IMG/VR virus record: IMGVR_UViG_2751185973_000002
Strand: one strand, 5' to 3'
From: a virus
Lineage: Duplodnaviria > Heunggongvirae > Uroviricota > Caudoviricetes
Length of the DNA: 4,096 bases
Made by a program: the position numbers and the translations under genes
Notes under the pieces: generated by a model
Database searches by the model: none
What the model saw: only the letters and a program-made list of their open reading frames with translations
What the model was told of the DNA's origin: nothing
Shown here: one piece after another, positions 443 through 4,096 of the stretch
Position numbering within the stretch: the stretch's first letter is position 1
How the letters are laid out: every line of letters begins with the position of its first letter

Positions 443-1252
443 TCAATGAACGGTATCGAGCAGCTTTAACAGCTCAGGGAATCGGGATTCGAAGAAATGC
501 GGCTGCGTCTCGCGCGGATTTGCAGGACAGGTGATGTTCTTGCCGAACATGCAGCCTTTCGCTGTCAGCGACCAGAATTTTTTGATGTTGTTAATCGCGG
601 TACGGCTGTATCGTTCGCGCTGCTCGACGATCCCCAGCTTAACCATCTGGTGATATGCCTGATTAGCCGTAAGGCGGATACCATACTGTTTCAGCAGTGC
701 ACTCAGCGACAGCGTGGGGCGACTTGAGCCATCAGGCGCGTCAGCAGGAGCATCAATGGCATAGCGCGGTGCCAGATTCGGTAAGCCAACAGCCTCCTGG
801 AGTTTCTGACAGGCACCAAGCACTGAAGAGTTAGACAGGTTTAATTCCCGGCGCATAAAGTCCAGCAGAATCACACCAGCCTGCATCTTGTCAGCAGCCT
901 GTCCGGATAATTTTTCCGGTGCGCTGGTTACCATGTCGAAAGTACGGATCACCTTCAGATGGAATGACGGGCTGATCCACATTGCATAGGCATACACCAG
1001 TTCCTTGCAGACATACGTTCCCCGTTCATTTCCCCCATGAATCATACTCACCGGGTCAACACCCAAATTCTGGGTGTTGGTCAATTCATAAACAAGCTCA
1101 ACAGTTTGTTGGCTGGAAATAAACTTTCCCGGCTCCTTGGTTCTGGCATTTGCACCAGATGCTACTGCTGCGCGATGCAGATCGTTCAGGCTGTAACGCC
1201 CATAAGCATCACGACGAACTTCAATACCATCAATGACCATCAGATTATTCAT
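443..1252 (-). CDS. KilA-N domain phage antirepressor
   Basis: The N-terminal MNNLMVIDGIEVRRDAYGRYSLNDLHRAA... is a typical KilA-N domain opening. I place the start at ATG 1252..1250 because GAGGAGA (1267..1261) sits 8 nt upstream; the track's start at 1285 is a GTG with no SD. Stop is TGA at 445..443. Product about 269 aa. Confidence 0.75.
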   Translation of the reverse strand: MNNLMVIDGIEVRRDAYGRYSLNDLHRAAVASGANARTKEPGKFISSQQTVELVYELTNTQNLGVDPVSMIHGGNERGTYVCKELVYAYAMWISPSFHLKVIRTFDMVTSAPEKLSGQAADKMQAGVILLDFMRRELNLSNSSVLGACQKLQEAVGLPNLAPRYAIDAPADAPDGSSRPTLSLSALLKQYGIRLTANQAYHQMVKLGIVEQRERYSRTAINNIKKFWSLTAKGCMFGKNITCPANPRETQPHFFESRFPELLKLLDTVH

Positions 1253-1271
1253 ACTTCGTTTCTCCTCTTGA

Positions 1272-1661
1272 TCAGGCGGCTGCACCCGCCGTTTTCTCGT
1301 ACTTACTGATAGTGATCTCGACCTTCCCTTTCGGGATAACCGGTCCCCACTCCACCAGCATTCTTTTCACCTGACTGTCGTCTTCCCACACACCCGCGTG
1401 GGTCAGGGCGTCAAACAGCGCCTTGTTATAGTTGTCCAGATCGCGGATCCGGTTATCCGGAGGAAACAACACGATCTCCACTGAAGCAGGTGCCGACGTT
1501 GGTTTCGGCAGACGACGTAACTGCTCAACTATTGCTGCGCACGCCGCGCTCTGGAATTTTCGCCCCGCCGCGCTTATCAGGCTCTTACCAGCAAACGCCC
1601 CTTTGTTGGGGTGTCGCCAGTACGTGTTCACGCTGGGCGGAAAAGGCAGTATTAGCTTCAT
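1272..1661 (-). CDS. rusA: RusA-family Holliday junction resolvase (crossover junction endodeoxyribonuclease)
   Basis: 129 aa. Motifs LPFPPSVNTYWRH, IRDLDNYNKALFDALTHAGVWEDDSQV and KGKVEITIS align with the E. coli RusA blocks ([49 protein letters not shown]), including the catalytic Asp cluster. SD AGGGAG (1675..1670) lies upstream of ATG 1661..1659, which overlaps the upstream stop as ATGA. Confidence 0.85.
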   Translation of the reverse strand: MKLILPFPPSVNTYWRHPNKGAFAGKSLISAAGRKFQSAACAAIVEQLRRLPKPTSAPASVEIVLFPPDNRIRDLDNYNKALFDALTHAGVWEDDSQVKRMLVEWGPVIPKGKVEITISKYEKTAGAAA

Positions 1662-2311
1662 GCCACCATCTCCCTGACCAGTTTTTCCGCCTGCTGGCGA
1701 ACCTGCGCCAGAAATGCCTCACCACATGCCTCAAGTTCATCGCGCCCGATGTAGCTGATTGCCGGTCCCTTCCAGGTCTTGTCGAAAACAGCAATAGCAC
1801 CAGCGAAGAAAGCACCTGTTGGCACCTGCTTTTCGTCTTTCGGGATAAACCAGGCAGGCAGTTCAAAACCAATACGCCCGCGAATAAAAGCAATATGATC
1901 TGCATCTTCCGGCCACCACACTTCGCTGGTGGCAGCTTTGATCAGGAAAACATAGCGCCCGCCTTTATCACGCATGGCACTGGCATGCTTCATGATGTAA
2001 CGCATGCCGATGATGTATTGCCCCTCATGCTGACTGGCGCGGCTGTACGGGGGATTGCCAAAGGCAGCACCTTTAAGCTCCGCAAGACGTTCTGACCAGT
2101 CATGCGCCAGCGCGTTGTCTTCCGCCGTGTAATACGCGGCACATTTGGCGTTATCACCGTCAGTGAACAGATCCAGAACAAACGGACCAAACAAGGTGTT
2201 AATTCCCCAGAAAATGTTGTCCGGCGTGCGCCACTGATCGCCCACTTCCTTCAGTTCATGGGCTGGTTTGTTCCGCAGTTCCACCAGCGCCTGGCAATAT
2301 TTATTACTCAT
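1658..2311 (-). CDS. Phage orphan DNA N6-adenine methyltransferase (Dam-type, NPPY motif)
   Basis: MSNKYCQALVELRNK...DQWRTPDNIFWGINTLFGPFVLDLFTDGDNAKCAAYYTAEDNAL...FGNPPYSR... carries the W-x-TP and D-L-F-x-D N-terminal motifs and the catalytic NPPY motif IV of small phage adenine methyltransferases. I place the start at ATG 2311..2309 (217 aa), which overlaps the upstream TAA by 1 nt and follows a GGGGG SD; the track's longer form starts at a GTG at 2344. The stop overlaps the rusA start as ATGA. No restriction enzyme gene is adjacent. Confidence 0.85.
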   Translation of the reverse strand: MSNKYCQALVELRNKPAHELKEVGDQWRTPDNIFWGINTLFGPFVLDLFTDGDNAKCAAYYTAEDNALAHDWSERLAELKGAAFGNPPYSRASQHEGQYIIGMRYIMKHASAMRDKGGRYVFLIKAATSEVWWPEDADHIAFIRGRIGFELPAWFIPKDEKQVPTGAFFAGAIAVFDKTWKGPAISYIGRDELEACGEAFLAQVRQQAEKLVREMVA

Positions 2312-2799
2312 TAAGCCCCCACGTAATTCCCTGACAGATACCACTCATCACCCGATACAGCGCGCTTACTGCTTTTCCGTAAACACTGCTCACGACGCGC
2401 CAGAAAATTGTTTCGTTCTGGCTGGGAGTGGCTTTCACGGAATGCCGCCATCCACACCGTTGCAGCACGACGGTATAAGCCCCTGGACTCCAGTTCTTCC
2501 GCCTGGCGGGTCAGGCACAAAATCTCCCGCGGGTCGTTAGTGCCGACATAGAAATTGCGCACAGGTCTGGTTTCACGAACTGGTTGCGGTTCCGCCTCCT
2601 GCGCTCTCTCAGTCAGGCGCGGGAAATGTCTGCGTGTATCCCCTTCACAACGGTGAGCCACACGACCACTCTGACGTAATTTGCTTGCTGACTGCAGAAC
2701 GCACTGCCGTGAGTAACCTGCAAAAGCATCCGCAATGTCTCCGGAAGTACACCCCGGATGGGCTTCAATGAATTTCTGAACTTCATTCAAAAGACTCAT
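2311..2799 (-). CDS. PerC/Pch-family regulator-like protein with an N-terminal, possibly winged-helix, extension
   Basis: 162 aa. The C-terminal block QAEELESRGLYRRAATVWMAAFRESHSQPERNNFLARREQCLRKS matches the PerC hallmark (E..GL[WY]RRAA..W ... RR..C) as I recall it. The N-terminal 55 residues (MSLLNEVQKFIEAHPGCTSGDIADAFAGYSRQCVLQSASKLRQSGRVAHRCEGD) look like a small helical DNA-binding module. ATG 2799..2797 overlaps the initiator stop as ATGA, and a G7 run (2809..2803) serves as SD. Confidence 0.65.
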   Translation of the reverse strand: MSLLNEVQKFIEAHPGCTSGDIADAFAGYSRQCVLQSASKLRQSGRVAHRCEGDTRRHFPRLTERAQEAEPQPVRETRPVRNFYVGTNDPREILCLTRQAEELESRGLYRRAATVWMAAFRESHSQPERNNFLARREQCLRKSSKRAVSGDEWYLSGNYVGA

Positions 2800-3620
2800 A
2801 ATCCCCCCCTGAATCCTGCCGGGATCTGGCTGTAGTCCACGTTGTCGTAACTGGCTTTGAAGTACGGGTCCTCGCGTCTGGCTGCAGATACCGCAGGAAC
2901 TTCCCAGGATTCTTCGAAATGACGATCTGGACCAAAGAACGTGACAGCCTGTTTCACAAATTGTGTGCCGCTATTGCCCATCGCAGATACCCAGCCCGCG
3001 TAGCGTTTCACACCTTCCAGCATGGTTTCGGGGTTTACCCCCTCGTTCAAACGGGCTTTCCAGGCTTTGAAGGCTGCAGATTTTGAATTGCCACCAGCAC
3101 GTTTGGGATATGCCAGCCATGCCTGCTCAAACTCCGGAGAGTATTCCGGTCGGTTTGAACGAACTCGCACGGACTCATCAACTGATGCACCAACAGCTAT
3201 TGGTTCATTGACTGGTTCTTTGACTGGTTCAAAAGAGTGACTGGTTCTGGGTGAATCTCCTGCACTACCCCTTGGTGCAACTCCTGCACTACCTGGTGAA
3301 TTTGCTGCACCAGATAGTGAATTATTTGCACTACCCCCTAGTGAATCTCCTGCACCATCAAGATGAAGGAGATAGATATTACTTGAGTTACCTTTTTCAC
3401 CTTTCCGGGTGACTTTTTTTACCAGCCCGGACTCACAAAGGGCCGCAATATGATTCATCACAGAACGTTTGCTAATCTCGCACTGGTCAGCAATATGCTG
3501 GTAGCTGGGCCAGCACTCACCCTGATCGCTGGCATTATCAGCCAGCTTAATCAGAACCAGTTTTCGCAATGGATTTCCCACTCGAATTTTCATCGCTTTA
3601 ACCATCAGCTCCATACTCAT
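2796..3620 (-). CDS. Phage replication initiation protein, lambda-O-like N-terminal HTH domain
   Basis: 274 aa. The N-terminus KIRVGNPLRKLVLIKLADNASDQGECWPSYQHIADQCEISKRSVMNHIAALCESGLVKK resembles the lambda O N-terminal DNA-binding domain pattern. A central low-complexity linker (GGSANNSLSGAANSPGSAGVAPRGSAGDSP, EPVKEPVNEPI) is encoded by DNA direct repeats. The C-terminal block YSPEFEQAWLAYPKRAGGNSKSAAFKAWKARL is of a type seen in phage replisome-organiser proteins. Strong SD GGAGGT (3631..3626) lies 5 nt before ATG 3620..3618; stop is TGA 2798..2796. Confidence 0.8.
   Translation of the reverse strand: MSMELMVKAMKIRVGNPLRKLVLIKLADNASDQGECWPSYQHIADQCEISKRSVMNHIAALCESGLVKKVTRKGEKGNSSNIYLLHLDGAGDSLGGSANNSLSGAANSPGSAGVAPRGSAGDSPRTSHSFEPVKEPVNEPIAVGASVDESVRVRSNRPEYSPEFEQAWLAYPKRAGGNSKSAAFKAWKARLNEGVNPETMLEGVKRYAGWVSAMGNSGTQFVKQAVTFFGPDRHFEESWEVPAVSAARREDPYFKASYDNVDYSQIPAGFRGGL
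3209..3247. repeat. Three copies of the 10-bp motif TGACTGGTTC next to the iterons
   Basis: Exact TGACTGGTTC at 3209-3218, 3221-3230 and 3238-3247; on the coding strand it encodes the EPV-repeat segment of the initiator linker. Confidence 0.5.
3251..3359. repeat. Five imperfect direct repeats of about 20-23 bp inside the initiator gene; putative origin iterons
   Basis: GTGAATCTCCTGCACTACCCC (3251-3271), GTGCAACTCCTGCACTACC (3276-3294), GTGAATTTGCTGCACCAG (3297-3314), GTGAATTATTTGCACTACCCCC (3318-3339), GTGAATCTCCTGCACCATC (3341-3359). In lambdoid phages the origin lies within the initiator gene in the inter-domain linker, which is the arrangement seen here. Confidence 0.55.
3361..3420. other. 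AT-enriched stretch beside the iterons; possible DNA-unwinding element of the origin
   Basis: About 65% A+T over 60 bp, against roughly 48% for the window, with a T7 run at 3414-3420. It lies on the 5' side of the iterons in gene orientation. Confidence 0.3.
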
Positions 3621-3841
3621 GCAGCACCTCCGAGATGCTTCATGTTTTTTCCGGAGCGAAAGGCTATAAGCGGCATACTGATGCGGTAATTACGGCCCAG
3701 CGGTTCACAAATCACCTTCTGACATTCACGGTCAACCAGGCTAACACGTAGAACATGCCCTGCAGGCGTGGTGTACCACTGACCCGGACGAGGACAATGG
3801 AAAGTCTGATTGGTAAACCGTTTGAAAATATTCCGGATCAT
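3617..3841 (-). CDS. Small hypothetical phage protein (74 aa), first gene of the coupled array
   Basis: ATG 3841..3839 is preceded by AAGGGGG; the stop overlaps the initiator start as ATGA (3620..3617). Sequence MIRNIFKRFTNQTFHCPRPGQWYTTPAGHVLRVSLVDRECQKVICEPLGRNYRISMPLIAFRSGK... has no HTH and no motif I can assign; it is unlike lambda Cro or CII. Confidence 0.5.
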   Translation of the reverse strand: MIRNIFKRFTNQTFHCPRPGQWYTTPAGHVLRVSLVDRECQKVICEPLGRNYRISMPLIAFRSGKNMKHLGGAA

Positions 3842-3957
3842 TTGCGCCCCCTTACCTCTGAAGGGTTCAGCGACAAATTTATGAGGCAGGCCAGTGCCGA
3901 AGCATCATTAATATAGTCATACAAGCTAACAGCCAGCGGAGATTCGGCTTTTGCCAA

Positions 3958-4009
3958 CTGAAGTGGTCAACAAAAACTGGCCACTGAAGTGGTCAACAAA
4001 AACTGGCCA
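3958..4009. repeat. Perfect 26-bp tandem direct repeat (2 copies, plus a partial third) in the upstream non-coding region
   Basis: CTGAAGTGGTCAACAAAAACTGGCCA at 3958-3983 and again at 3984-4009, preceded by a partial GCCAA at 3953-3957. Each unit carries a TTGACC -35-like hexamer on the minus strand, and the unit junctions form the short inverted repeat CCACT-GA-AGTGG. Confidence 0.8.
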
Positions 4010-4096
4010 CCGAGTTAGAGTTTTTCCAGTATCGATTTTCCGATTCGTTTGGGGGTAACCCACCGTTATATTCGTGCGGTCTTAGTGCGCTGTAAT

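Follow-up and report, generated by a model that had tools for sequence, protein, structure and literature searches.

RgdR (ECs1581), the sole DUF4222 protein to have been studied, has 99 residues and a pI of 10.1; it activates LEE1 and type III secretion, represses motility, alters Congo-red binding and binds DNA non-specifically and with low affinity, and its RGD motif (R20) is important for the activation of type III secretion (PMC3378721). The reported phenotypes concern host transcription and not replication (PMC3378721). RgdR is encoded by the E. coli PICIs analysed previously (PMC6092414). The replication modules of phages such as the one studied here (‘Eru’ types) are acknowledged as uncharacterised (PMC8951638). 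The gene that we describe is already catalogued as a hypothetical protein, being of the same family as SfV Orf38, mEp460 gp42 and PHROG 1153 (for example, WP_000620696), which share its position and coupling; here we tie it, remotely, to proteins of the RgdR/DUF4222 kind.

We analysed a 4,096-nucleotide window of a Caudoviricetes virus (IMG/VR record IMGVR_UViG_2751185973_000002), the minus strand of which is a run of overlapping early-operon genes extending from a KilA-N gene to a 74-codon ORF. Our overall reading, to which we assign a probability of about one half, is that this ORF encodes a basic SH3-like barrel protein that is a divergent relative of RgdR and DUF4222 and would act as an initiator-coupled, DNA-binding accessory factor. 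The gene, its signals and the initiator are arranged as follows:

3847 to 3853, minus strand: Shine-Dalgarno sequence AAGGGGG of the 74-residue gene, 5 nt 5' of its ATG (3841-3839)
3617 to 3841, minus strand: ORF of 74 residues (PHROG 1153 / SfV Orf38 family), with a predicted N-terminal helix and five-strand SH3-like barrel
3625 to 3631, minus strand: Shine-Dalgarno sequence GGAGGTG of the initiator, inside the C-terminal Gly-Gly codons of the 74-residue gene
3617 to 3620, minus strand: ATGA overlap between the stop of the 74-residue gene (TGA, 3619-3617) and the start of the initiator (ATG, 3620-3618), indicative of translational coupling
2796 to 3620, minus strand: replication initiator of 274 residues, with an N-terminal winged helix that is HTH_36/DnaD_N-like

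The original prediction had assigned this ORF a good Shine-Dalgarno sequence and an ATGA overlap with the initiator start, and had argued from them that it is genuinely translated. The coordinates are right, both signals are present at the positions listed above, and the gene has the appearance of a translated and conserved one. We compared 97 related loci, drawn from IMG/VR, phages in GenBank, genomes of E. coli and public assemblies, and none of them has a frameshift or stop that breaks the ORF. The first 94 of these loci hold 44 distinct coding sequences, most of which give an identical protein. By the Nei-Gojobori method, dN/dS is 0.06 relative to the Salmonella phage ST64B (dS of ~1.0) and 0.10 relative to a Citrobacter prophage (dS of ~1), and lies between 0.13 and 0.38 among subtypes of the gene that are 43-69% identical. 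Rfam, promoter and terminator scans of the region revealed no RNA element or internal promoter that would account for the conservation. The ORF is a genuine gene under purifying selection, far beyond what chance would produce.

A GGAGG-like equivalent of the Shine-Dalgarno sequence precedes the small gene in every subtype compared, and the initiator Shine-Dalgarno sequence within it is conserved at the nucleotide level across all subtypes. The C-terminal Gly-Gly of the protein is invariant because that sequence sits in its last codons. The start of the small gene also overlaps the stop codon of an upstream rha gene as ATGA, so that the gene is overlapped on both sides. Such stop/start overlaps, together with an initiator Shine-Dalgarno sequence inside the ORF, are what a simple translational-coupling leader would show, its translation feeding ribosomes to the initiator start and its peptide having no function. 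However, strong purifying selection acts on the amino-acid sequence (dN/dS of 0.06-0.25 across subtypes), AlphaFold predicts a confidently folded core, and conservation reaches 43% identity with the same invariant residues. Because selection acts on the peptide sequence, we exclude a pure leader role, and we regard this as the least probable reading of the gene.

The small gene had also been placed at the head of the replication operon. This did not hold, as the gene is internal to the early-right operon and two further features lie upstream of it:

3838 to 3957, minus strand: remnant of a Rha/antirepressor gene (its last 39 codons), the TGA of which overlaps the ATG of the 74-residue gene
3959 to 4096, minus strand: right end of an ISEc52-like insertion sequence (IS3 family) that takes in the 3' end of the transposase ORF

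The 39 remnant residues are identical to the C-terminus of the 383-residue Rha of mEp460, and the similarity to all phage relatives ends exactly at base 3958. The transposase gene is oriented toward the small gene, and the same insertion is present in three IMG/VR contigs (L004, L047 and L049). The small gene thus looks like the first of its operon because the insertion sequence cut away the genes upstream, and the apparent ‘intergenic leader’ in front of it is a broken gene plus an insertion sequence. In the intact relatives mEp460, SfV and an E. coli prophage, the order is cI with divergent cro, ymfL/CP76 (the gene at the CII position), Ash/Rha, the small gene and Rep, followed by PerC, Dam, a LexA-like gene, RusA, KilA-N, DUF968 and Q; ST64B also belongs to the intact relatives that have cro, ymfL/CP76 and Ash/Rha ahead of the small gene. 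The window protein is 95-97% identical to the mEp460-type protein, but unlike those of SfV and mEp460 its gene has lost the upstream part of the operon to the insertion. A 26-bp terminal sequence of the element, TGAAGTGGTCAACAAAAACTGGCCAC, occurs twice in tandem in the window (3959-3984 and 3985-4010), and is single-copy in the three contigs with the same insertion and in a canonical ISEc52 copy (L088); the tandem may be either a real duplication or an assembly artefact.

On the other side of the initiator, the remaining early genes of the window are:

2311 to 2799, minus strand: PerC-family (YfdN-like) regulator gene, directly 3' of the initiator
1658 to 2344, minus strand: phage Dam methylase
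1272 to 1661, minus strand: RusA
443 to 1285, minus strand: KilA-N protein

The window is without a 327-bp gene for a LexA-DNA-binding-like protein that mEp460, SfV and most E. coli relatives carry between dam and rusA (at 2936-3262 in L001 and 7658-7984 in L002); the corresponding site is at ~1650-1665, and the best genome matches align in two pieces for this reason. Separately, in three chimeric database proteins (P0037, P0040 and P0146) the first 40-49 residues of the small protein are fused to the RusA C-terminus, which implies that the whole Rep-PerC-Dam block was deleted in some degraded prophages.

The small protein has a mass of 8.5 kDa, a calculated pI of 10.6 and a net charge of +9, and other subtypes are also very basic. 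The AlphaFold model has a mean pLDDT of 78.8, rising to at least 90 over the core (residues 20-60), and predicts a short N-terminal helix, five strands and a helical turn before the last strand (E22-24, E30-37, E42-47, E54-57, H59-62, E68-71), which together would form an SH3/KOW/Tudor-like barrel. The absence of a helix-turn-helix and of any resemblance to Cro or CII, both claimed beforehand, agrees with these results: Pfam and NCBIfam searches revealed no HTH family, the core is predicted to be all-beta, the single short helix at the N-terminus lying outside it, and in relatives the Cro-like and CP76/YmfL genes are separate and lie further upstream. Searches of Pfam, NCBIfam, PADLOC and PDB sequences returned no match, but PHROG 1153 (‘unknown function’) was matched over its full length (residues 1-74 against positions 1-74 of 74, E=1.3e-45), as it was by the divergent members P0077 and the L099 protein. 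The protein had been described as unassigned and of open function. The family has indeed no experimentally shown function; on the other hand, the protein can be assigned to PHROG 1153 and, as discussed below, probably to the remote relatives of DUF4222 and RgdR.

Searches of the BFVD structure database with the model gave weak matches only, mostly to phage proteins that are uncharacterised or annotated as DUF1653. The top structural neighbours were the KOW domains of Spt5/NusG, CarD and the Tudor domains of PcrA/UvrD, which might suggest an adaptor that binds RNA polymerase or an elongation factor (compare CarD, the UvrD/PcrA C-terminal domain and the NusG KOW domain) and modulates transcription across the origin. 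This would rest on fold similarity of a kind that is generic to small beta-barrels, and we consider such an adaptor improbable.

An exhaustive HMM search of 1.84 billion representative sequences recovered ~20 true representatives at 50% identity, which are enterobacterial wherever the source is identifiable. Long repetitive hits (P0042, P0050-P0062) were discarded as spurious sums of weak repeats. A scan of GTDB species representatives gave one locus only. Of 5426 complete E. coli genomes, 978 (~18%) carry the gene, which is called a hypothetical protein in every match listed, and many Shiga-toxin phages carry it too; a database entry identical to the window protein is found in Shigella. In the original GenBank records of phiP27 (AJ298298; L084 3501-3725) and ST64B (AY055382; L095 3501-3725), it is intact yet unannotated. 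Members down to 43% identity keep the same invariant residues. The N-terminal ~19 residues exist in several unrelated versions, each tracking different upstream genes, and we therefore place a mosaic junction inside the small gene, with the barrel travelling with the initiator side. Literature searches with the accession numbers and names of the PHROG 1153 family returned nothing.

We propose that the 74-residue protein is a remote homologue of DUF4222 and RgdR, which we consider likely. The window protein has no match to Pfam DUF4222 (PF13973; gathering threshold of 27 bits) even at E<=10, and we therefore call it a divergent sister branch and not a member of that family. All scores of its relatives fall below the threshold, the P27-type member P0077 reaching 17.2 bits (E=0.0037) and other members 13.6-14.1 bits. 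One member of the small-protein family is already named DUF4222 in UniRef. In the other direction, a Klebsiella phage DUF4222 protein (67 bits to Pfam) matches PHROG 1153 at E=3.9e-5, and the window protein matches PHROG 1343, to which that Klebsiella protein belongs, at E=0.04. Profile-profile comparison with hhalign gave E-values of 4.4e-4 and 3.1e-4 over 43-44 nearly gapless columns, at a probability of only 33-39%, and BLASTP gave E=1e-5 for one pair. Comparison against RgdR-only sequences was not significant (E=0.24). In the predicted models, RgdR (E23-26, E31-38, E41-46, E52-56, H57-63, E64-69) and the window protein have the same order and spacing of strands beta1 to beta5, with a short helix before beta5.

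Gene order gives a further view of the relationship. In the Sakai genome, rgdR overlaps the start of a DUF927 primase gene (ECs_1582) by 4 nt, with ssb and the PerC homologue pchE downstream. In four PICIs (L105-L108), Ash is followed by a 75-residue ORF, a DUF4222 gene that overlaps a D5_N/DUF5906 primase-helicase gene by 4 nt, and SSB, with ProQ and PerC after SSB in two of the four loci. In SfIV (which has the same backbone as SfV and the window), several Klebsiella phages and the E. coli K-12 element e14, a DUF4222 ORF overlaps the start of an HTH_36 Rep gene by 11 nt. The arrangement of Ash/Rha, a small DUF4222-type protein, an overlapping initiator and a nearby PerC thus recurs with several unrelated kinds of initiator. 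SfV-type lambdoid prophages and E. coli PICIs (L105-L108; L102 19712-35172) have a common set of genes around these unrelated initiators.

The DUF4222 ORF is unannotated in e14 (L111 3502-3681), SfIV (L103 2438-2659) and the Klebsiella phages (L104, L109 and L110, 2480-2659). Its frame differs from that of the annotated ‘ymfM’-like gene in whose 3' half it is contained, and the 11-nt overlap is with the start of Rep/oweE. The copies of SfIV and L104 score 67-69 bits against Pfam DUF4222, and the e14 copy was placed by its near-identical sequence. The ymfM ORF cloned in the published filamentation study contains 53 of the 59 codons of the DUF4222 ORF, and searching the text of that paper turned up no reference to a frameshift or stop-codon control. 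Given that ymfM is reported to cause filamentation, that a DUF4222 ORF overlaps it in e14 and SfIV, and that the protein described here is a small early-operon product without known function, it might be toxic or serve host takeover (for example as an inhibitor of cell division, in the manner of e14 YmfM or lambda Kil), or it might be an anti-defence factor that the early operon happens to carry. We consider this quite improbable, as there is no PADLOC or other family match, nothing indicates that the small protein is toxic, and strict coupling to the initiator is not expected of a moron or an anti-defence gene.

All members of the family that we examined directly precede an initiator gene: a long ORF starts at the junction in 93 of the 96 loci with enough DNA, by a 4-nt overlap in 90. 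The initiators, and the helicase-loading genes near them, are of several kinds:

SfV, mEp460 and the window: HTH_36 Rep; no helicase-loading genes in cis
phiP27 and PhiR49_2: HTH_36 Rep; DnaC-like and DnaB-like genes nearby
Stx1/Stx2 phages: Rep with a different N-domain; DnaC-like and DnaB-like genes nearby
Two metagenomic contigs (L099 and L100): HTH_36 Rep with other C-terminal domains; lambda-P-like gene nearby

The genes upstream of the small gene vary; they are usually Ash and/or Rha of different lengths, and there are none in one Citrobacter prophage. The C-terminal domain of the window initiator is common to ‘primosomal/replication O-like’ phage proteins, and the 65 phage records with the small gene largely coincide with records that have this clade of C-terminal domain. 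We rejected a specific partnership with it as a general rule, since L099 and L100 carry other C-terminal domains. We also rejected a partnership with the N-terminal domain, as PhiR49_2 pairs an N-domain of 94% identity with a small-protein core of 58% identity, and the N-domain of Stx1_699 differs. The small protein does not strictly co-vary with either domain of the initiator. More distant initiators, with a related C-terminal domain but no small gene, are found in Tritos, POCJ13, Klebsiella phi12.4 and Burkholderia DC1, and the gene is therefore not generally required. Other small ORFs upstream of such initiators, in POCJ13 and Burkholderia DC1, proved to be unrelated (one is low-complexity, the other a winged helix). 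Because the family is narrow (~20 representatives), its conserved synteny partly reflects shared ancestry. A C-terminal tail of ~24 residues, REDPYFKASYDNVDYSQIPAGFRG (2796-2900 in the window; also in L101, L103 and L104), is common to initiators with otherwise differing C-terminal domains, and may be a motif to which a host replication protein docks.

The linker region of the initiator gene contains one further feature:

3251 to 3355, no strand assigned: five iteron-like repeats of ~15 bp (GTGAATCTCCTGCAC and variants), spaced by 21-24 bp

Three TGACTGGTTCT repeats accompany them within 3190-3360. By comparison with the lambda origin, which lies inside gene O, this repeat region is a putative origin of replication.

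We infer both DNA binding by the small protein and any role in replication from the comparisons above. The protein would be translated, by coupling, off the phage early-right transcript, on which its gene stands between those for Ash/Rha and the initiator; the coupling ties its production to that of the initiator. By analogy with RgdR, a weak non-specific binder and co-activator, it most likely binds DNA without sequence specificity and serves as an accessory factor at the start of the lytic programme. It might help to open or activate the putative origin region ~300-450 bp downstream, inside the initiator gene, or alternatively aid transcription through that region. Its target would be something common to all these elements and not one initiator domain, whether origin-region DNA, the transcription there or a host factor.

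The main rival to this reading is that the protein is an RgdR-like global co-regulator of transcription from host or phage promoters, for example by countering nucleoid silencing, with no part in replication and a position that reflects the organisation of the early operon. RgdR, the sole studied relative, activates LEE1, represses motility and alters Congo-red binding (PMC3378721). PerC-family regulators, also activators of LEE1, occur in the same gene blocks, and Ash/Rha regulators usually lie upstream of the small gene. However, the co-regulator reading leaves unexplained why overlapping codons tie the gene to initiators of several unrelated kinds while its upstream neighbours vary, and the RGD motif needed for the LEE effect of RgdR is absent from the small protein. 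We consider a role confined to transcriptional co-regulation unlikely.

The small protein is a conserved hypothetical one for which an accessory role is plausible, and its link to RgdR provides a testable hypothesis for both proteins. Through this link, RgdR, known as a virulence regulator, may be one of a wider class tied to replication-initiator genes, and the analysis also flags an unannotated DUF4222 ORF inside ymfM of K-12. We speculate, with more doubt than confidence, that barrels of the DUF4222 type (RgdR, the ORF inside e14 ymfM and the PHROG 1153 branch) generally assist replication initiation in the prophages and PICIs of enterobacteria, whatever the type of initiator, with overlapping codons keeping them stoichiometric with it. 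On this view, an activity directed at DNA or the nucleoid would have evolved for origin firing, and RgdR would affect type III secretion and motility as a by-product.

In phage lambda, the CII/Cro region immediately precedes the initiator gene of the early-right operon. The 74-residue gene occupies a similar place, but its product has no helix-turn-helix and an all-beta predicted core. Plasmid Rep genes may be preceded by translated leaders, such as tap of R1 and repY of ColIb-P9, that couple ribosomes to the initiator start. Like these, the present gene is a short ORF that houses the Shine-Dalgarno sequence of the initiator and ends in a stop codon overlapping the initiator's start; it differs in its much greater length (74 residues), its predicted fold and the purifying selection on its amino-acid sequence. 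The Spt5/NusG KOW domain, the CarD RID and the PcrA/UvrD C-terminal domain share no sequence, motif or profile match with the protein. The DUF4222 proteins (PHROGs 285 and 1343), including RgdR, differ in that identity is only ~23-28%, the RGD motif (R20) of RgdR aligns to PGQ in the window protein (VGQ, EGQ or PGW in other subtypes), and the C-terminal helix of RgdR is absent here, the window protein having an N-terminal amphipathic helix instead. They resemble it in being small and basic, in coming from prophages and PICIs and in having a conserved core of ~50 residues, and their genes likewise stand directly before an overlapping initiator gene, with Ash upstream and PerC downstream.
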